From assembly GCA_001773215.1 (NCBI GenBank), contig MEWB01000001.1:806099-870098 (forward strand): DNA of 64,000 nucleotides, read 5' to 3'. The stretch's first letter is position 1. Each line of letters starts with the position of its first letter. The notes beneath the pieces are model-generated. The model had not been told where the DNA came from, made no database searches, and worked only from the letters and a program-made list of their open reading frames with translations. Shown here in pieces: positions 16,147 through 47,359 of this stretch. Both the position numbers and the translations under genes were made by a program. Origin of the DNA: a candidate division WWE3 bacterium RIFOXYC1_FULL_40_10 (GTDB taxonomy: Bacteria > Patescibacteriota > WWE3 > UBA101185 > UBA10185).

Positions 16147-16892
16147 GTACTACTAAATTAACAATTGGATACTTATACAAGGAAGAAATGAATTTGTACG
16201 GAGATAATGGAAATATAGAAGTAATGCTAGACAGAGCTCGGAGAAGAGGGATTCAAACCGAGGTTATTGTGATTGATACAACAACAAATCCAAATGACCC
16301 TAGCTTGAAAGGAGTGAATTTTATGTTTATGGGGGGAGGTTCTGATTATTCTCAACGGGAAACTTACCAGGACTTTATAACTAACAAAAAGCAATTGTTA
16401 CAAAGCTATGTGGAAGAAGGAAAGACAGGATTATATATTTGCGGCGCTTATCAACTAATGGGCAATTATTACAAATCTGCAGACGGCTCTGTGTTAAAAG
16501 GATTGGAAATTTTTGATATTTACACTCAGCATTTTGGGTATTCTAAACAAAGGTGTACAGGGAACGTTTTAGCCGAACTTACAAATAGTGCTATTAAGGG
16601 TCCCACTTCTGTTGTAGGTTTTGAGAATCATGGTGGTAGAACTTACCTTGGTACCGGTTGTAAGCCTTTTGCCACATTAAAGTTTGGGTTTGGCAACAAT
16701 GGCGAAGATAATACTGAGGGCTTGCTATACAAAAACAGCTTGTGCACTTATCTTCATGGACCTCTTGTAGCCCGTAATCCACACATAGCCGATTATTTAT
16801 TAGCCAAAGCCCTAAATGTTGATAAACTGGAACAATTGGATGACTCTCTTATATACGATGCCCACACTGCCTCAACAAAATTGAAGCAATGA
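16143..16892 (+). CDS. gatD: Lipid II isoglutaminyl synthase glutaminase subunit GatD (CobQ-type glutamine amidotransferase)
   Basis: CobB/CobQ-like GATase motifs (GGGSDYSQ, ICGAYQLMG, HGG); always paired with murT. Confidence 0.7.
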   Translation: MSTTKLTIGYLYKEEMNLYGDNGNIEVMLDRARRRGIQTEVIVIDTTTNPNDPSLKGVNFMFMGGGSDYSQRETYQDFITNKKQLLQSYVEEGKTGLYICGAYQLMGNYYKSADGSVLKGLEIFDIYTQHFGYSKQRCTGNVLAELTNSAIKGPTSVVGFENHGGRTYLGTGCKPFATLKFGFGNNGEDNTEGLLYKNSLCTYLHGPLVARNPHIADYLLAKALNVDKLEQLDDSLIYDAHTASTKLKQ

Positions 16893-20505: not shown

Positions 20506-20847
20506 ATGAACCAACCTTCTGGTCCTTTTGATATGCTTAAAGACGTTGTCGGAGAATCGGAAATACCCGCGCCCGGTCATATTACTTCAGTTTGGGATAT
20601 CGCCGCGGCAATCGCAAATTTTATGACTCTTATGGCTGCCGGATTGGCAATCGCCGGATTGGCTTATGCCTTTGTACAGTATGCGACCAGTCAGGGAGAT
20701 CCTAAAGCTGTGGATAGGGCTCAAAAGGCTGTTACAGGGTCTGTGGTGGCCTTCGTTGTCACTTTTTTGCTGTGGTCTATCCGAAGAATAATAATTGGTA
20801 CCTTAACGCAAGAAGGAGTATATATCGGAAATGATCCGGGGATTTAA
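20506..20847 (+). CDS. Pilin-like small two-helix membrane protein (TrbC/VirB2-like topology) with ~35-aa leader
   Basis: Two hydrophobic helices separated by ATSQGDPKAVDRAQKAVTG; paralog of 10070..10423. Confidence 0.4.
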   Translation: MNQPSGPFDMLKDVVGESEIPAPGHITSVWDIAAAIANFMTLMAAGLAIAGLAYAFVQYATSQGDPKAVDRAQKAVTGSVVAFVVTFLLWSIRRIIIGTLTQEGVYIGNDPGI

Positions 20848-41417: not shown

Positions 41418-42065
41418 ATGGAAAACTTATTAAATCTCATATTTCCCCCAAAATGTTTATTTTGCTCCTCTACCGGTGCTATATTTTGCGAAGTTTGTTT
41501 AGGAAAATGTGTGGTATTAAATCAGATAGAAACTCTTAAGAACCAGGGATTTAATTTTGAACTTAAGTTGCTCTCGATATTTTCTTATGAAGGCTTGGTT
41601 AGATTGTGCATCAAAAAATCTAAATATCAGGCCAAGCAGTTTGCAGCTCTCAAAGTGTTGGCTTCTAGGGGTGTTACCTACTTAAAGCCATATTCCAGTT
41701 TCTTTGGAAATTTCTATGTTATGGCTGTTCCGCCATCGGAAAACAATTTAAGTAAAAGGGGGTTTAATCAGGCCGATGTAATTGTTCATGTTCTAGCAAA
41801 AAACTTGCCTATAAGAACTTTCAGTAAAAACCCATTACATAGGTTAAAAGCTACAGTTTCTCAACACTCAAAATCCAGAGTAGAGAGATTCAACACACTT
41901 AAAGATGCTTTTTGGGCGGATGCCTCACTTGTTGCGGGGAAAAACATATTGTTGGTTGATGATATTTGCACATCAGGTGCAACTTTTTTTGAATGTGCTA
42001 AGGCATTGAAGCGTGCGGGAGTGAAATCTATTGGCTGTTTTGCTTTATCTAGGAGGCTTTTATAG
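41418..42065 (+). CDS. comFC: ComF family phosphoribosyltransferase-domain protein (ComFC-like)
   Basis: N-terminal Cys-cluster PPKCLFCSS...CEVC and C-terminal PRTase motif ILLVDDICTSGAT. Confidence 0.7.
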   Translation: MENLLNLIFPPKCLFCSSTGAIFCEVCLGKCVVLNQIETLKNQGFNFELKLLSIFSYEGLVRLCIKKSKYQAKQFAALKVLASRGVTYLKPYSSFFGNFYVMAVPPSENNLSKRGFNQADVIVHVLAKNLPIRTFSKNPLHRLKATVSQHSKSRVERFNTLKDAFWADASLVAGKNILLVDDICTSGATFFECAKALKRAGVKSIGCFALSRRLL

Positions 42066-42080
42066 TATAATGGCGAATGT

Positions 42081-42170
42081 GGAGGGATGGCAGAGTGGCC
42101 AAATGCGACGGTTTGCTAAACCGTGCCCGGTTTACTGGGCCCGTGGGTTCGAATCCCACTCCCTCCGCCA
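42081..42170 (+). tRNA. tRNA-Ser (anticodon GCU), type II with long variable arm, CCA encoded
   Basis: Acceptor GGAGGGA/TCCCTCC, G73, anticodon loop TTGCTAA, T-loop GGTTCGAATCC; TATAGTATAAT -10 element upstream. Confidence 0.85.
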
Positions 42171-42296
42171 GTAATTTGCGATAGGCCTTTAGCGTCTTGG
42201 GCAAATTGCTTGATGAAGCAAGTGGATTCGAATGCCGCAGCCGCGACGGCGGCGAGGCGGGGTCGACGGGATCGCCAGTAGGCGAGAACCGGTGAC

Positions 42297-42317
42297 CGAA
42301 TCCCACTCCCTCCGCCA
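42297..42317 (+). repeat. Exact 21-nt direct copy of the tRNA-Ser(GCU) 3' end (att-like)
   Basis: CGAATCCCACTCCCTCCGCCA identical to 42150-42170. Confidence 0.8.
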
Positions 42318-42333
42318 CATGTGCCCTATAGTA

Positions 42334-42362
42334 TTGACTTTTTCTAGGTTTTACCCTATAAT
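42334..42362 (+). promoter_or_regulatory. Consensus sigma70-like promoter (TTGACT-17-TATAAT) for the 42442 ORF
   Basis: -35 42334-42339, -10 42357-42362. Confidence 0.6.
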
Positions 42363-42441
42363 TACGGTATAAATGTTTTCCAACTAACCTTGCTTCTCTT
42401 GCCACTAGAGAAACATTGTATTGCCCAGATAGGAGGAATAA

Positions 42442-42798
42442 ATGGCGAAAATTAGTATTACTGCCACGTATGGTCACGCGCGAAATGGCGAGAACACTGT
42501 GCAAATGGCTGATGTTTCACTGCCGTTTGTAACTTGTGATGAGGCATTCTCGCATCCGTCTCTCGAGAATAAGTACAAGGGCGAACTTGTACAAATAGAT
42601 ACCCCAGCGGGTTTAATTTATGTGGATGGTTCAGGAGAGGTGGTTTTACCAAGGGCAATGGAAGTTACTTTGTGGGATCCCAAGCTACAAGTGGGCTTGG
42701 CCACTTTTGTAACTACTTATTTTAAGATCCACCGGTTGCTTATGCTTACGATTAAAATAGATGGGGACAATCAAGCACTGGTATTTAGAATTAAGTAG
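42442..42798 (+). CDS. Hypothetical small protein (cassette ORF 1)
   Basis: AGGAGG SD; no recognisable domain. Confidence 0.45.
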   Translation: MAKISITATYGHARNGENTVQMADVSLPFVTCDEAFSHPSLENKYKGELVQIDTPAGLIYVDGSGEVVLPRAMEVTLWDPKLQVGLATFVTTYFKIHRLLMLTIKIDGDNQALVFRIK

Positions 42799-43036
42799 GT
42801 AGGACACTACCTCAGAGAAAAAGAAAAATTCTTAAATACAGGGTTTACCAGTGAAGTTTATTGGCGAGTTACCAAGATTCTATGAATCAATAACTCAAAC
42901 GACCCAACATTAGATATACTCTAAAAAGGAGAATCAAATGTTGGGGCCTAAACAGAGTCTTTCATTTATGGAAGATTGCGATTAGGTTATAACTACTAAA
43001 TTTTTTTACTGACCAATAGATATTTTCCAATATCAC

Positions 43037-43053
43037 CCCACATTCTCCGCCAT
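43037..43053 (+). repeat. Degenerate copy (13/17) of the tRNA-Ser 3'-end repeat
   Basis: CCCCACATTCTCCGCCA with shared upstream TTCCAA flank. Confidence 0.5.
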
Positions 43054-43146
43054 TCATCAAAATCAGTACTTCTTGAAGTATTCGTAAGTTCTAACATTTT
43101 ACTAGTTCATATTATTTTGGAACTATGTAAATGCTATACTAATCTT

Positions 43147-43284
43147 ATGTTAGGTAGTTTAGGATTAATTCCTTTTATAAAACGGGATAAACCAGGGGGA
43201 AACACTCCTTTGCACAAATTTTTGGCTGTAGCTTTGGTTGTTGGTGCTGGTTTGTTAGTGATTTACTTCATATCAAAGATATAG
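43147..43284 (+). CDS. Possible 45-aa small membrane peptide (cassette ORF 2), not in the ORF track
   Basis: ATG..TAG with hydrophobic LAVALVVGAGLLVIYFI; low confidence. Confidence 0.25.
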   Translation: MLGSLGLIPFIKRDKPGGNTPLHKFLAVALVVGAGLLVIYFISKI

Positions 43285-43297
43285 GTCTTGGAGAAAA

Positions 43298-43333
43298 AAG
43301 TTCCAAGTGCGTCCCACTCCCTCCGCCATGTAT
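43298..43333 (+). repeat. ~36-nt repeat unit containing an exact 17-nt tRNA-Ser 3'-end copy (43312-43328)
   Basis: AAAGTTCCAAGTGCGTCCCACTCCCTCCGCCATGTA. Confidence 0.75.
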
Positions 43334-43448
43334 CAATATCATTGCTACGGCAATCTTTCTTTAGTTCCAATATCACGGGTTTTTTTCGTAATTCCCTTCT
43401 TGTGAAAAATATATTAATATGTTTTTACATACACCCAAAGGAGAAAAT

Positions 43449-43661
43449 ATGGTTACTTTTAATCCCTACGATTTGAGCCACATTGCTTGTTTAACCGAAT
43501 GGTTTAATGATAGGAGAAGCTCTGGGCATCGTCCGTTTCCATTCTTAAGCCTTGCTACAGTTAATTCTACCACCAAGCCCACAATAGCTAGGGGTTTGTT
43601 GAAGGCAGATACTCCCTCAGAAGGCGATGTTAAGAAGAGTGAAGGCGAGGGTTTAGGTTAA
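43449..43661 (+). CDS. Hypothetical small protein (cassette ORF 3)
   Basis: GGAG SD before ATGGTTACT; ORF-track 43419 start shortened. Confidence 0.35.
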   Translation: MVTFNPYDLSHIACLTEWFNDRRSSGHRPFPFLSLATVNSTTKPTIARGLLKADTPSEGDVKKSEGEGLG

Positions 43662-43751
43662 TGACTTACATGCCCCTTTATTTGCTAAAATATTAGCTTA
43701 TTAAAGGGGTTTTGTATTGTTTTGATTAAAATAGTTCCCAGTGCGTTCCAT

Positions 43752-43787
43752 GCTCTTCACCATGTAAAAGTACAGGGTCCTTTAGCG
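43752..43787 (+). repeat. Degenerate copy of the 36-nt repeat unit
   Basis: ATAGTTCCCAGTGCGTTCCATGCTCTTCACCATGTA, ~27/36 identical to 43298-43333. Confidence 0.6.
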
Positions 43788-43807
43788 GCAACCGGAGGAA
43801 GGCTAAG

Positions 43808-43836
43808 TTGACAATATGCAAAACCTATAGTATAAT
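43808..43836 (+). promoter_or_regulatory. Consensus sigma70-like promoter (TTGACA-17-TATAAT) for the 43882 ORF
   Basis: -35 43808-43813, -10 43831-43836. Confidence 0.65.
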
Positions 43837-43881
43837 TAACTAGCATTCCTTCGAACACCTATAAAAATACGGAGAGATTGT

Positions 43882-44133
43882 ATGAATGAGAATAAGAGAG
43901 CAATTTCGGATTTTTGCACGGCGGTTGTGCTCACAATCGCAGTGGTGCTTCTGTTCCTGGGAAAGTTTATTCCCACCCCGGCGGAAGTTGTACTACGCAT
44001 CGTTGAAGTAATATGCGCCGGTATTGGCTCAATTCTTCTTTTTCAGCTGAAGAAAAACAGCCAGGCCATGTTCTTAGCTATGGTAGTAGCCATATCGTTC
44101 ACTACCATGTTGCTGACGCTTACTATCCAGTAG
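43882..44133 (+). CDS. Small two-helix membrane protein (cassette ORF 4)
   Basis: GGAGAG SD; hydrophobic helices. Confidence 0.45.
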   Translation: MNENKRAISDFCTAVVLTIAVVLLFLGKFIPTPAEVVLRIVEVICAGIGSILLFQLKKNSQAMFLAMVVAISFTTMLLTLTIQ

Positions 44134-44251
44134 ACAGCCTTTGTTTCAGAAGTAGCCCCCAAGTGGTTTTGCCATCTGGGGGTTTTTTGCTTTTAATGCT
44201 ATTATCCACTAATAAATCAATTGTGAATAAACCAGAGAGAGAGGAGAAACC

Positions 44252-44866
44252 ATGGCAAGAATTGTTAATCCTACACCCGGAGATCCTTTTGGAGAAGGAC
44301 ACCTATGCGATTATTTGCGAGAATCTATTTGGCTGAATACAAATTCAGGCATACATTATCTGTTACCAAAACCTTACGAGTACGCAGATTTTGAAATACT
44401 AAGCTTGGACCCGGCAAAACTGGTTCCCTTGGCGAAATACGTATTAAGAGGAAATCTGGCTATCTTAGAGTCCCTAGAAAAAGAATTGTTGCCTGAGGGC
44501 TTCGACATTTTTAACCTGCGGGGTATGGTGCAAATAGATGAAAACAACCTAATTTGCCCGCCCATTATAGAGGTTTGGCACCAAGATCCTCACAAGTACG
44601 ATGGTCGCAAGGTAATAGTTGACGGTTTACACCGCTGTTATATTGCACACAAAAGGGGAATTGCAATAACATGCGTTTTGATTTCGGGGAAAATATCCAG
44701 CGATTTACCGGTGTTGCCCTTAACGTGGAATGATGTTTTGGAACAAGACTCTGTTCCCAAAGACAAGCGTAACTACCATCCCGGGATACCACCACCATGG
44801 AAACCTCATGAGGTTTATAGACAGACGTTTCCGGGGTCTACAGGACCAAGAATGCCAAAAATCTAG
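44252..44866 (+). CDS. ParB-like N-terminal (ParB/Srx nuclease-fold) domain protein
   Basis: IIEVWHQDPHKYDGRKVIVDGLHRCYIAHKRGIAITCV resembles the ParB N-domain DGxHR...A motif. Confidence 0.45.
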   Translation: MARIVNPTPGDPFGEGHLCDYLRESIWLNTNSGIHYLLPKPYEYADFEILSLDPAKLVPLAKYVLRGNLAILESLEKELLPEGFDIFNLRGMVQIDENNLICPPIIEVWHQDPHKYDGRKVIVDGLHRCYIAHKRGIAITCVLISGKISSDLPVLPLTWNDVLEQDSVPKDKRNYHPGIPPPWKPHEVYRQTFPGSTGPRMPKI

Positions 44867-45018
44867 TTTTGGAAAAATTACCCAGTAGTTAGCTAGAGAT
44901 CTAATTGCTGGGTTTTTCGTTATTAGAGTGAACTTACTAGGATATCCAAGATCTTTGACTTATGTGATAAAATCAGGCATATCAGAAAGACATACCAATA
45001 CAAATAGGAGAGTGTCTT

Positions 45019-45351
45019 ATGTACTTCGGAAAAGATTTTTGGATGATACCCTACTATGACAAAACCGGGGTGGACGTTCGTGGCAAGCTGAAGGAAATGG
45101 GGTTCAAAATCGGGCGACTGTATAACGATATCCTTTGTATGGTAAACCCACCGGCTGGGTGGAAGGCAGAACAAGCGGACAGAGAAAAGCCGGTAATAGT
45201 GCCCCAAGCGTATCCTTCAACCAGTGTGGAGTGGACTGACGGGTACATTCTTTTCGATCAGGAGGGCAATCCTCGAATTCAGGCGACTCACTATCATAGT
45301 GATGAGGAAGATTTGGAGGACGAGGACACCGGCTGGTTAGTGTTTGTTTAA
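45019..45351 (+). CDS. Hypothetical protein with acidic C-terminus
   Basis: ORF with upstream GGAGAG. Confidence 0.4.
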   Translation: MYFGKDFWMIPYYDKTGVDVRGKLKEMGFKIGRLYNDILCMVNPPAGWKAEQADREKPVIVPQAYPSTSVEWTDGYILFDQEGNPRIQATHYHSDEEDLEDEDTGWLVFV

Positions 45352-45418
45352 AGTAAGGGAGGATGTTGAGATAACTTCAAAGCATCCTTTTTCATTTCTT
45401 TAGTGATACTATTAGTTT

Positions 45419-46264
45419 ATGGTTGCTCTCGATGGTGAAAAACAATTACAGGAATACCTTAGTGGAGAGGATGTAATGGCACTCTTGGAGGTGGCAAGCA
45501 AATCTTTGGCAGACAAATCGCCGGAAGATAGATCTGCGGAAGTTCAACACAACTGTCGTTACACACTTCCCGGTTTAGAGTACTTTGGTGCTGACCATGC
45601 TTATAATAGCGACCACCCGCAATTTGCTTTAATGAAGAAAAGTTTTCAAGAATTCGTCGATAAATATCCTAATCCCGTCGTTTTAGTGGAGTCATCCTTG
45701 CCCAGGCAATCACCTGATAGTGAATCAGCTATAGCAAGAGACGGAGAACGAGGGTTTGTAGCATTCCTCGCAAGAGAAAGAGGAATTGCCGTCGAATGCC
45801 TGGAGCCTAGCCGTAAAGACGAAATTGAATATCTCCAGAAATATTTTAGCGAAGAACAAATTGAATGCTACTACTTCTTGCGGGCTATAAGGGGTTACCA
45901 GCTACCTCGGGCCGAAGGATCCTCGAAGGTAGAATTTGACGTATTAGCAAGAAGTATCCTGGCTCACCACGAGACTATGTATGGGAAGTTGGCAGGGTGG
46001 GAACATTTTGGGTTTAACTTGGAACATCTTAGGCGTATATATAACGAACTAACAGGAGAACCCTTGGATTTTTATAAAGGTGTTGATGTTGACCCTAGAG
46101 GAGATGCAAGCGTTATTAACCAAGTAGCCAATAAATGCTCACTCTACCGAGATTTTTGCCACTTAAGAACCATTAAGGAGCAACTTGAGGCGGGAAACCA
46201 GGTTTTTGTAGTAAATGGCAAAGAGCATGCTGTAATCCAAAAGGCGGTATTAGAAAGACTCTAA
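45419..46264 (+). CDS. Hypothetical protein (281 aa)
   Basis: Clean ORF, no recognisable motif. Confidence 0.45.
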   Translation: MVALDGEKQLQEYLSGEDVMALLEVASKSLADKSPEDRSAEVQHNCRYTLPGLEYFGADHAYNSDHPQFALMKKSFQEFVDKYPNPVVLVESSLPRQSPDSESAIARDGERGFVAFLARERGIAVECLEPSRKDEIEYLQKYFSEEQIECYYFLRAIRGYQLPRAEGSSKVEFDVLARSILAHHETMYGKLAGWEHFGFNLEHLRRIYNELTGEPLDFYKGVDVDPRGDASVINQVANKCSLYRDFCHLRTIKEQLEAGNQVFVVNGKEHAVIQKAVLERL

Positions 46265-46296
46265 GTTTTTTTCGCTCCAAATGGTACTATATACTC

Positions 46297-46875
46297 ATGA
46301 GGTTAAGTAATATAACTGATTTTTTTAGTATCACTCAGAAAGATTCGAGAAAGCAGGCAGAAAAGGAACAGGTTTTAGAGAAAAAAACTTTAGGCCCAAA
46401 AGAAATTTTCATGGAGTGGACTGCAGCTTCCCGGCCACACAAAGATTTTATAAATATAAAGCTGTCCAGATCCCTCACCATCATCGCGCTTTTTGTAGGT
46501 TTCTTGCTTGTATTAATGAAAGAATTCGTTCTTATTTTTTTTGTGGCAAGCATTTACTTTATTCTGTATGTATTATCAAAATTCAGCCCCGAACAAGTTC
46601 ATTACGAAATAAGTAATCACGGAGTTTCTTATGGGGATGATATGTATTATTGGGAAGAGTTAAAGCAATTCTTCTTTATGAGCAACTCAGGATTCGATAT
46701 TTTGGCTATTGATACCTTTGTAGGTCTTCCAGGCAGACTTTTCCTTACAATTGATGCTCGCCAAAAAGAAGCTTTACACAAGTTCTTAGTGGAGAAAATA
46801 CATTATATCGAGGTTGAGCCCAAAAACGTTTTTGATAACCTTTATTCAAAAATATCCTCTAAAATAAAATTCTAA
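46297..46875 (+). CDS. Hypothetical membrane protein (N-in, two TM helices, C-terminal domain)
   Basis: Hydrophobic LTIIALFVGFLLVLM / LIFFVASIYFILYVL. Confidence 0.45.
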   Translation: MRLSNITDFFSITQKDSRKQAEKEQVLEKKTLGPKEIFMEWTAASRPHKDFINIKLSRSLTIIALFVGFLLVLMKEFVLIFFVASIYFILYVLSKFSPEQVHYEISNHGVSYGDDMYYWEELKQFFFMSNSGFDILAIDTFVGLPGRLFLTIDARQKEALHKFLVEKIHYIEVEPKNVFDNLYSKISSKIKF

Positions 46876-46936
46876 AAAAACCGCGACAGCTTTGTTAATT
46901 GCAATCGCGGGGTCTCTGCTATAATGGGCTAGTTGT

Positions 46937-47012
46937 GCACCCGTAGTTCAGAGGATAGAACGCAAGGTTGCGGACCTTGAAGTCGGGGGTTCGAATCCCT
47001 CCGGGTGCACCA
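46937..47012 (+). tRNA. tRNA-Arg with anticodon GCG (unusual; ACG expected)
   Basis: Cloverleaf: acceptor GCACCCG/CGGGTGC, A73, anticodon loop TTGCGGA, T-loop TTCGAAT, CCA encoded. Confidence 0.7.
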
Positions 47013-47026
47013 GAAAAGTGGTGTTG

Positions 47027-47359
47027 CTAATCCCAAATTACGAATCTCTTTTCGTGGGGGTCTTCAGTTAGAGGTCTTAACCTTCCACTTATGATCGCTT
47101 TGTTACTATCTATAATGGAGGCGAAAAACCCGGACCAAAGAGACAGATGTTGGTTTATTTCCAGGCAATCCCAAGTATCTGGAATTACCATATAATAACC
47201 ACCCTGCTCTATCACTACTTGAGTCAACTTTTCTCCCACTTCCCCGGGTTTATTTAAAAGGTTTTCAAAATAAAATCTGTCGGTTTCGTTTGGAAAAACC
47301 TGAACCTTTTTCACACCAGCAAGTATTTTACCTAGAGACTGAATGTGCAACCGTAACAT
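47027..47359 (-). CDS. Hypothetical protein
   Basis: ORF between two tRNAs. Confidence 0.4.
   Translation of the reverse strand: MLRLHIQSLGKILAGVKKVQVFPNETDRFYFENLLNKPGEVGEKLTQVVIEQGGYYMVIPDTWDCLEINQHLSLWSGFFASIIDSNKAIISGRLRPLTEDPHEKRFVIWD

Follow-up and report, generated by a model that had tools for sequence, protein, structure and literature searches.

Repeats of a tRNA-Ser(GCU) 3' end, a folded miniature element and unrelated small genes at a possible insertion hotspot in a WWE3 genome

The locus analysed here raises the question of how partial copies of a tRNA gene came to alternate with small, mutually unrelated genes. It lies in a 64,000-nt stretch of candidate division WWE3 bacterium RIFOXYC1_FULL_40_10 (GCA_001773215.1, contig MEWB01000001.1, positions 806,099–870,098 of the forward strand), hereafter the window, in which a tRNA-Ser(GCU) gene with encoded CCA (42081–42170; ARAGORN; 57.4 bits to the Rfam tRNA model) is followed by repeats of its own 3' end. 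Features of the window are on the forward strand unless marked otherwise. Members of the candidate phyla radiation (CPR)/Patescibacteria have very small genomes, and characterised examples of their mobile elements or non-coding RNAs are few. An original prediction, made from the letters of the window, had proposed either repeated site-specific integration at the tRNA gene or an array of duplicated cassettes. Our analysis points, with about even confidence, to the 3' end of tRNA-Ser(GCU) as an insertion hotspot at which the repeats are boundaries of inserted DNA, a miniature element being the youngest layer and 45-nt junctions the older ones. The element is probably a mobile member of a new, strongly structured, tRNA-associated family. 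If mobile, it would be a new miniature element showing how CPR genomes acquire DNA at tRNA genes; if it is an RNA, it would be a new tRNA-linked structured RNA. The array downstream of it shows the accumulation of species-specific small genes at a tRNA site.

Copies of the tRNA end and the insertion site

The repeated sequence corresponds to the last 21 nt of tRNA-Ser(GCU) (42150–42170), from CGAAT of the T-loop to CCA. As predicted, an exact copy (u1, CGAATCCCACTCCCTCCGCCA; 21/21) was present at 42297–42317, 147 nt from the original (start to start). The 17-nt core TCCCACTCCCTCCGCCA recurred exactly at 43312–43328, where 0.06 matches were expected by chance; elsewhere in the window it was found only as a variant, within two other tRNA-Ser genes. 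This second exact core forms the centre of a 45-nt unit, designated unit B, in which the tRNA end stands between a left arm (AGTTCCAAGTGCG) and a right arm (TGTATCAATATCATT). Three copies of unit B were found: u2 at 43023–43067 (TTTTCCAATATCAC-CCCACATTCTCCGCCA-TTCATCAAAATCAGT; nhmmer E = 3.6e-5), u3 at 43299–43343 (AGTTCCAAGTGCG-TCCCACTCCCTCCGCCA-TGTATCAATATCATT) and the most degenerate, u4, at 43733–43777 (AGTTCCCAGTGCGT-TCCATGCTCTTCACCA-TGTAAAAGTACAGGG). Compared with the tRNA alone, the copies at 43032 and 43750 were weak: 43032–43052 matched the tRNA end at 14/21 positions, which by itself is chance level and equals several random matches. Compared as whole units, u2 and u4 matched u3 at 31/45 and 30/45 positions, respectively. 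Because both values exceed the maximum of 27 matches among shuffled sequences (mean 22), u2, u3 and u4 are homologous copies of one unit. The degenerate copies that had been described within a unit of about 36 nt were therefore real, with the unit lengthened to 45 nt and its starts placed at 43023, 43299 and 43733; position 43766 is where the core of the fourth repeat ends.

The window region was 100% identical to contigs of uncultured WWE3 (Katanobacteria, CPR) bacteria (GCA_035290405.1 and JGI Ga0208375_1000001). The local order is SmpB ... tmRNA (reverse strand) ... ComFC, tRNA-Ser(GCU), the insert, ORF192, tRNA-Arg(GCG), tRNA-Ala(CGC), tRNA-Ser(CGA) and tRNA-Ser(GGA), where ORF denotes an open reading frame. 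ORF192 (46297–46875) is the conserved gene that flanks the far side of the insertion site, as recognised from homologues and synteny (tblastn to loci L005, L006 and L007), and tRNA-Arg(GCG) lies 3' of it at 46937, an arrangement shared by the ORF192 homologues of relatives. Scans of genomes and metagenomes with ComFC returned as the closest other genomes only sequences with ≤47% identity in this protein. In L005, the ORF192 homologue begins 79 nt after tRNA-Ser(GCU), and in L120 the tRNA is followed by a 94-nt element, 21 nt and the ORF192 homologue (115 nt from tRNA to ORF192 in total). L006 and L118 were filled differently, with unrelated inserts of 2.7 and 4.7 kb, respectively, at the same site. 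Empty or differently filled sites were thus seen in distant relatives. The adjacency of tRNA-Ser(GCU) and ORF192 in relatives identifies 42171–46296 as a lineage-specific insertion.

A conserved structured element behind tRNA-Ser and tRNA-Arg genes

The exact copy u1 is not the attR of a decayed island. It turned out instead to be the 3' end of a conserved, GC-rich structured element of 112–147 nt (family A, unnoticed in the original prediction), which in the window occupies 42206–42317 (covariance model R1, 120.4 bits) and has a G+C content of 65%, compared to approximately 40% for the genome. No coding sequence lies in the 126 nt that separate the two 21-nt copies. Directly 3' of the tRNA lies a trailer hairpin, H0 (42171–42209, GTAATTTGC ... 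GCAAATTGC; inverted repeat I1 and fold), and hairpins of unrelated sequence occupied this position in six of the seven family members. H0 is followed by helix P1 (42224–42227 pairing with 42300–42303), which encloses helices 2 and 3 with a GACG loop (42234–42258) and helices 4 and 5 with an AGTA loop (42261–42297); the 3' tail of the element is the acceptor 3' strand plus GCCA.

By local BLAST, positions 42214–42317 were 81% identical over 105 nt to L006 19893–19997, immediately 3' of a tRNA-Ser(CGA). This and two further loci share an architecture consisting of the tRNA, usually H0, a segment complementary to the T-loop and the T-stem 3' strand, two GC-rich hairpins (GACG/GAAG and AGYA loops) and an exact copy of the tRNA end, with conserved single-stranded joins between the hairpins (GAAUG, CGAG, GGGGUCGACGG and GAACCGGUGACC). 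The copy comprises the last 21 nt of the element's own tRNA, or 32 nt including 11 nt of trailer at the L005 tRNA-Arg. The 5' strand of P1 does not copy the 5' half of the T-arm; it is reverse-complementary to the T-loop and T-stem 3' strand, and the complement is exact in L120 (CAGGATTTGAA vs. TTCAAATCCTG) and in the tRNA-Arg element of L005 (GACTCGAA). Within the element, a long inverted copy (20–30 nt) of the tRNA end, such as a primer-binding site or guide, was not significant in any single instance, and only the short P1 was supported.

Analysis of four sequences with MAFFT and RNAalifold gave a consensus of 26 pairs, and compensatory changes were present in 17. In the alignment of all seven members, 92% of the cells were paired vs. 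73% in shuffles, and double changes occurred in 20 of the 26 pairs. The covariation score was 0.54 against 0.18 in shuffles, none of the 500 shuffles reaching 0.54; the seven-sequence alignment was fitted to the model, and 17/26 had already been obtained in the initial four-sequence run. Sliding the partners by 1–3 columns lowered pairing to 21–36% and covariation scores to ≤0.08. Apart from tRNAs, Rfam 15 gave no match to 42171–42317 at E values up to 10 or to the L120 copies, and no description of such a structured mini-element was found in Rfam 15 or in the literature searched. Hammerhead-like, group I P1-like, group II domain V-like and SRP-like readings were compared by eye, and none fitted all members.

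Family A comprised seven full members (37–125 bits), each directly 3' of a co-oriented tRNA-Ser or tRNA-Arg gene, and one further member truncated by a contig end; homologues were found at four other CPR loci, behind tRNA-Ser and tRNA-Arg genes. Occupancy of orthologous genes was patchy. At tRNA-Ser(GCU), the element was present in the window, L120 and L073 and absent from L005, L006, L007 and L118, L007 being empty where the related L073 was filled; at tRNA-Arg(GCG), it was present in L005, L120 and L118 and absent from the window, L006 and L007. The cores were 79–82% identical between elements at different tRNAs in different genomes but only 44–62% among the three tRNA-Arg elements. The host ORF192 proteins were 39–52% identical. 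Core similarity tracked neither the identity of the tRNA nor host relatedness, an incongruence that speaks for movement of the element from one tRNA gene and genome to another. Next to u2–u4, a covariance-model search of 42000–47100 with filters off detected no decayed element cores, the weak matches obtained (13.3 and 9 bits) being driven by the 3' tail.

Duplicated tRNA ends extend beyond family A. In the CPR loci in hand, 11 of approximately 40 tRNAs were followed 80–175 nt downstream by an exact copy of their last 17 nt. After tRNA-Ala(CGC), three genomes (L005:11862–12015, L006:16695–16850 and L118:7934–8056) carried inserts of 100–135 nt that ended in an exact 19-nt copy; their interiors are related to one another and unrelated to family A, and the three sequences gave no convincing consensus fold. 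Inserts of 136–173 nt behind tRNA-Ser genes of other CPR lineages (L007:6312–6465 on the reverse strand, L080:860–1050 and L011:4205–4395) ended with exact 17–18-nt copies of the tRNA end and differed in their interiors. The repeat started in the T-loop in every case. In L011, the tRNA-Ser(UGA) gene (ARAGORN call) lacks CCA and so does its repeat; together with the trailer-bearing repeat of the L005 tRNA-Arg, this indicates copying from the gene or the primary transcript. A retro origin of the repeats from mature tRNA as template is disfavoured by the same two cases.

Insertion weighed against other explanations

Under the insertion hypothesis, successive site-specific insertions would have entered the T-loop region of the tRNA, and every incoming element would have restored the tRNA 3' end, while displaced ends would have stayed downstream as attR-/attP-like junctions and decayed. 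The youngest layer (42171–42317) would then be a non-coding, GC-rich and tightly folded miniature element of approximately 147 bp, and the older layers would be three junction units of approximately 45 nt separating independent, unrelated small genes, at least two of which have their own promoter and terminator. Internal junctions between tandemly integrated related elements would look as u2–u4 do, with both arms in common (P-core-P'). In the left arm, GTGCG is inserted between GTTCCAA and TCCCAC, and one way to read this arm is as a T-loop carrying a 5–6-nt insertion. Unit u4 is followed by GTCCTTTAGCGGC, which by sequence reading resembles the H0 loop GGCCTTTAGCGTC, a likeness consistent with u4 being the earliest of the displaced tRNA ends and having kept its original trailer. 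Of the repeated integration that had been predicted, the lineage-specific site and the extent of the repeats from T-loop to 3' end stand; the recombination mechanism, the order of events and a recombinase supplied in trans from outside the window are what we infer. The small ORFs would likewise have arrived as cargo, and the fold, as RNA or single-stranded DNA, may be needed for mobility.

Repeats running from the T-loop to the 3' end are the identity block expected of T-loop-class integrases. The locus resembles tRNA-targeted integrative islands (tyrosine-integrase prophages and genomic islands of the T-loop class, Prochlorococcus tycheposons, Dehalococcoides ssrA islands) in its direct repeats of the tRNA 3' segment from the T-loop, in serial copies after one tRNA of which the older are more degenerate, and in variable, often ORFan cargo. 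In the islands formed by Prochlorococcus tycheposons, successive integrations displace the earlier elements inward, and partial tRNAs stay behind, scattered (bioRxiv 10.1101/2020.12.28.424599). Here, by contrast, no integrase or hallmark gene was seen, the "elements" measure only 0.15–0.7 kb, the youngest is non-coding with a conserved covarying fold, and no strain-level polymorphism was seen. Since no integrase was seen, island membership is not established, and the apt claim is that the locus works like such islands.

Small non-coding mobile elements offer a second comparison. Cis-mobilizable elements (CIMEs) and MITEs (miniature inverted-repeat transposable elements) likewise are small, non-coding, present in several copies, bounded by target repeats and presumably served by an enzyme in trans. 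The element, with its non-coding interior between 21-nt copies, is flanked by att-like sites and has no recombination genes of its own, as in a CIME. CIMEs are deletion derivatives of known integrative and conjugative or integrative mobilizable elements with recognisable partners, whereas no recognisable autonomous partner was found here. MITEs have terminal inverted repeats and target duplications of 2–10 bp; the repeat here is 8–32 nt, always from T-loop to 3' end, and encloses a conserved multi-helix interior. Around the core, P1 forms an inverted pair of 4–7 bp.

The downstream array also recalls integron cassette arrays, including clusters of attC sites lacking integron integrases (CALINs), in that co-oriented, unrelated small ORFs are split by a short recurring site, and attC sites, which are recombined as folded single strands, keep structure more than sequence, as the structured element does. 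At least two of the cassettes here have strong promoters of their own, unlike the mostly promoterless cassettes of integrons; no IntI was seen, and the anchor is a tRNA gene rather than attI. Unit B was rejected as an attC site on direct reading, as it has no R''/R' core pair (RYYYAAC/GTTRRRY) and GTTCCAA has a C where a purine is required. An inverted-repeat scan found no arms spanning the copies of unit B, which thus do not show the hairpin symmetry of attC (a 57–141-nt fold). In concept, the element comes closest to non-autonomous att-flanked elements, MITEs or attC-like folded sites, although it fails those defining features of each that were tested.

Several observations weigh against insertion. 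A covarying five-helix fold is more than a plain att scar would require, and two tRNA-Arg elements keep the fold while retaining only 8 nt of the repeat, namely those that form P1. The empty sites come from distant relatives only (ComFC 41–47% identical), with flanks that cannot be aligned at the nucleotide level. Within the species, exact-protein look-ups of ORF118, ComFC and ORF192 recovered at least 23 conspecific contigs with one of these proteins identical, and every contig had the same arrangement; the array is accordingly fixed in the species, and the presence/absence or indel polymorphism at repeat boundaries that might have been expected was not seen among them. The absence of an integrase, already noted in the original prediction, held up: no integrase, recombinase or transposase family was listed by Pfam for window ORFs of at least 110 aa or for the insert ORFs, the listing covering the best 25 of 54 families for eight window ORFs, including two of approximately 1,500 aa. 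No autonomous relative with the same att site was found in the window, the approximately 130 loci compared or IMG/VR, a limited search space, and the element core was absent from IMG/VR. A scan of IMG/VR with the unit B arm also gave no match, and in scans of this type the bare 21-mer matched only ordinary tRNA-Ser genes or prophage ends of other organisms. An intergenic motif of locus L130 is similar to unit B's left arm. Lastly, the putative cargo is not obviously foreign, because the codon usage of the small ORFs is native-looking and ORF204, the next gene of the insert, is a conserved Patescibacteria gene (homologues 43–71% identical, 29 clusters).

In a different explanation, possible though on the doubtful side, 42206–42317 is not an insertion scar but a structured RNA, either a small RNA or a cis-acting processing element that would be co-transcribed with the tRNA in its 3' trailer. 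The tRNA-end copy would then mimic a T-arm and acceptor, closing P1 and leaving a single-stranded, acceptor-like CCA tail, and tRNA-processing enzymes might use the RNA as a substrate or be decoyed by it, or the RNA might be an alternative partner of the tRNA 5' strand. The strong covariation speaks for such an RNA, as does the slightly better pairing of the tRNA-sense strand (7 G.U vs. 2 A.C). The element is always co-oriented and directly 3' of a tRNA, in the window no promoter-like site was detected between the two, and P1 and the fold persist in elements with a truncated repeat. A transcript of tRNA plus element is predicted to pair the tRNA 5' strand with the distal copy (z = −4.9). Structured RNAs such as tmRNA, GOLLD and ROOL often lie beside tRNA genes or end in tRNA-like structures, and the element resembles them in its tRNA-gene neighbourhood, its covariation and its T-arm/acceptor-like 3' end; it differs in being far smaller (approximately 110 nt), in having no Rfam family and in ending with an exact copy of the neighbouring tRNA. 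Patchy presence at orthologous tRNAs and an incongruent core phylogeny would be unusual for a host RNA gene. Moreover, in the consensus structure no pairing involves the 14-nt tail that repeats the neighbouring tRNA, so that the structure leaves the exact identity of this tail unexplained, and at the L005 tRNA-Ser(GGA) the H0 between tRNA and element resembles an intrinsic terminator. An RNA and mobility can coexist, for example if the RNA is a mobile intermediate.

Carried further, insertion at the tRNA end leads to a proposal that we consider unlikely but worth stating: the element would represent a new class of non-coding CPR mobile elements that home to tRNA genes, with the five-helix fold, as RNA or single-stranded DNA, being the active or recognised form, and that carry or regenerate the tRNA end so as to occupy an essential gene harmlessly, while the 45-nt junctions and promoter-bearing ORFs would form an integron-like capture array docking at a tRNA T-loop instead of attI.

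It is improbable that the 45-nt units are a lineage-specific intergenic signal, that is, a regulatory or recombination motif with GTTCYRA between a terminator and the next promoter, one unit of which captured or converged on the tRNA sequence so that the tRNA likeness is secondary. The layout of L130, a related contig (L130:2000–9500, ena:ERZ27293400:k141_1190847), speaks for this. The locus contains 11 co-oriented small ORFs of 44–205 aa, including a 68%-identical ORF204 homologue, and its spacers follow the order of window 42318–44250: terminator hairpin, repeated intergenic unit (RGTTCYRAC ... TTCCARTRCNGGGAGC), consensus promoter, ORF. Its repeated units are of 239 nt (two copies) and 45 nt (three copies, CTTTCTTTTTACAAACAGGTTCTGACCTCTTCCAGTGCGGGGAGC), and the motif RGTTCYRAC also recurs; the units have this motif in common with the unit B arm and are without a tRNA-like core, so that the arm may be a more general site. 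In the window, u3 and u4 each follow the end of an ORF and precede the promoter that comes next, and a half-unit at 43362–43375 (AGTTCCAATATCAC; direct repeat D6) has u2's left arm but no tRNA-like core. Against an intergenic signal stand 17 consecutive nucleotides of u3 that equal the adjacent tRNA end, with u2 and u4 aligning through this core, and the similarity to L130 covers only approximately 10 nt. Unit B was also absent from the rest of the 64-kb window and from the other loci compared, which makes a common intergenic motif, the refuting condition of the original prediction, improbable; the resemblance of the left arm to the L130 motif still lends it some weight.

Local tandem duplication and divergence of an ancestral cassette of repeat, promoter and gene would account for the regular repeat-to-ORF spacing and the two similar promoters, but it is very improbable, as is chance similarity, given that the repeats exceed every shuffle and that the intervals between them (ORFs, promoters, spacers) have no detectable similarity outside the approximately 45-nt unit, which also contradicts the proposed duplicated cassettes.

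Small genes of the insert and neighbouring loci

The four ORFs between the repeats (118, 45, 70 and 83 aa) are co-oriented and mutually unrelated. They were confirmed at 42442, 43147, 43449 and 43882 with gene-like codon usage (0.18–0.26 bits/codon, vs. a mean of 0.29 in real genes and 0.06 in spurious ORFs); each starts 95–125 nt after a repeat, somewhat closer than the 110–140 nt given earlier. Both consensus promoters that had been noticed were recovered. They are sigma-70-type sites, TTGACT-17-TATAAT 5' of ORF118 (42334–42362; 11/12) and a perfect TTGACA-17-TATAAT 5' of ORF83 (43808–43836; 12/12), and only six sites across the 64 kb, these two included, matched at 11/12 or better, the mean in shuffles of the region being 0.12. 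ORF118 (42442–42798; codon score 0.25), with the ribosome-binding site AGGAGG in front of it, is an ORFan that matched only itself among 5.8 billion proteins, in a record of a hypothetical protein from WWE3 bacterium RIFOXYC2_FULL_40_11, and had no Pfam, PHROGs, NCBIfam or PADLOC match. Between ORF118 and u2, a hairpin with 13-nt arms (CCCAACATTAGAT / ATCAAATGTTGGG; 42903–42986) encloses the ribosome-binding site AAGGAG and the start of a 15-codon ORF (42938–42985). ORF45 (43147–43284), called in the NCBI annotation only, encodes a small protein with a hydrophobic helix at its C-terminus. ORF70 (43449–43661) has the ribosome-binding site AAAGGAG and is followed by a hairpin (CCCCTTTA...TAAAGGGG) with a T-rich run. 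ORF83 (43882–44133; codon score 0.26) encodes a small hydrophobic protein, as read directly from the translation, and is an ORFan with only a self-match among 1.84 billion representative proteins; 3' of it, sequence reading identified an intrinsic-terminator-like hairpin (GCCCCCAAGTGG...CCATCTGGGGG plus TTTTTT; 44155–44189).

The rest of the lineage-specific insert (44252–46264) contains ORF204, ORF110 and ORF281. Searches of the insert ORFs against Pfam, PHROGs, NCBIfam, PADLOC and PDB sequences returned nothing but ParB-CE for ORF204 (44252–44866; Pfam, E = 1e-10); PHROGs gave no match. ORF204 is better conserved than the flanking "core" genes ComFC (≤47%) and ORF192 (≤52%), and its homologues occur in differing genomic contexts, twice beside tRNA genes. 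At L128:9923–11342 (GCA_022868165.1, JALHYA010000001.1), tRNA-Gly(CCC) is followed after 7 nt by the start of a homologue with 66% identity, and 1.33 kb downstream there is a degenerate copy of this tRNA from T-loop to 3' end (GGTTCTACTCCCATATCCCGCTC, matching 13/15 of the tail). This arrangement suggests that ORF204-family genes occur in tRNA-bounded mini-islands elsewhere too.

Further observations concern the neighbouring genes and the related loci. In L007:3221–6555, the five tRNAs are ordered as in the window, yet ComFC and the ORF192 homologue are on the other strand, as if every tRNA, or every protein gene, had been inverted in place. Immediately 3' of tRNA-Ser(CGA) in L120, ARAGORN called a tRNA-Ser with anticodon ACU (16244–16331); bacterial anticodons with an unmodified A34 are unusual. 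In L123:5483–7052, a large serine recombinase gene (511 aa; Resolvase, Recombinase and Zn_ribbon_recom) overlaps the 3' end of an opposite-strand tRNA-Glu(CUC), and an ORF192 homologue is present on the same contig. Elsewhere in the window, 1739–2092 and 20506–20847 are a probable T4SS_pilin pair (two ORFs match in Pfam, best E = 6e-6), encoding small proteins that are 57% identical to each other in alignment.

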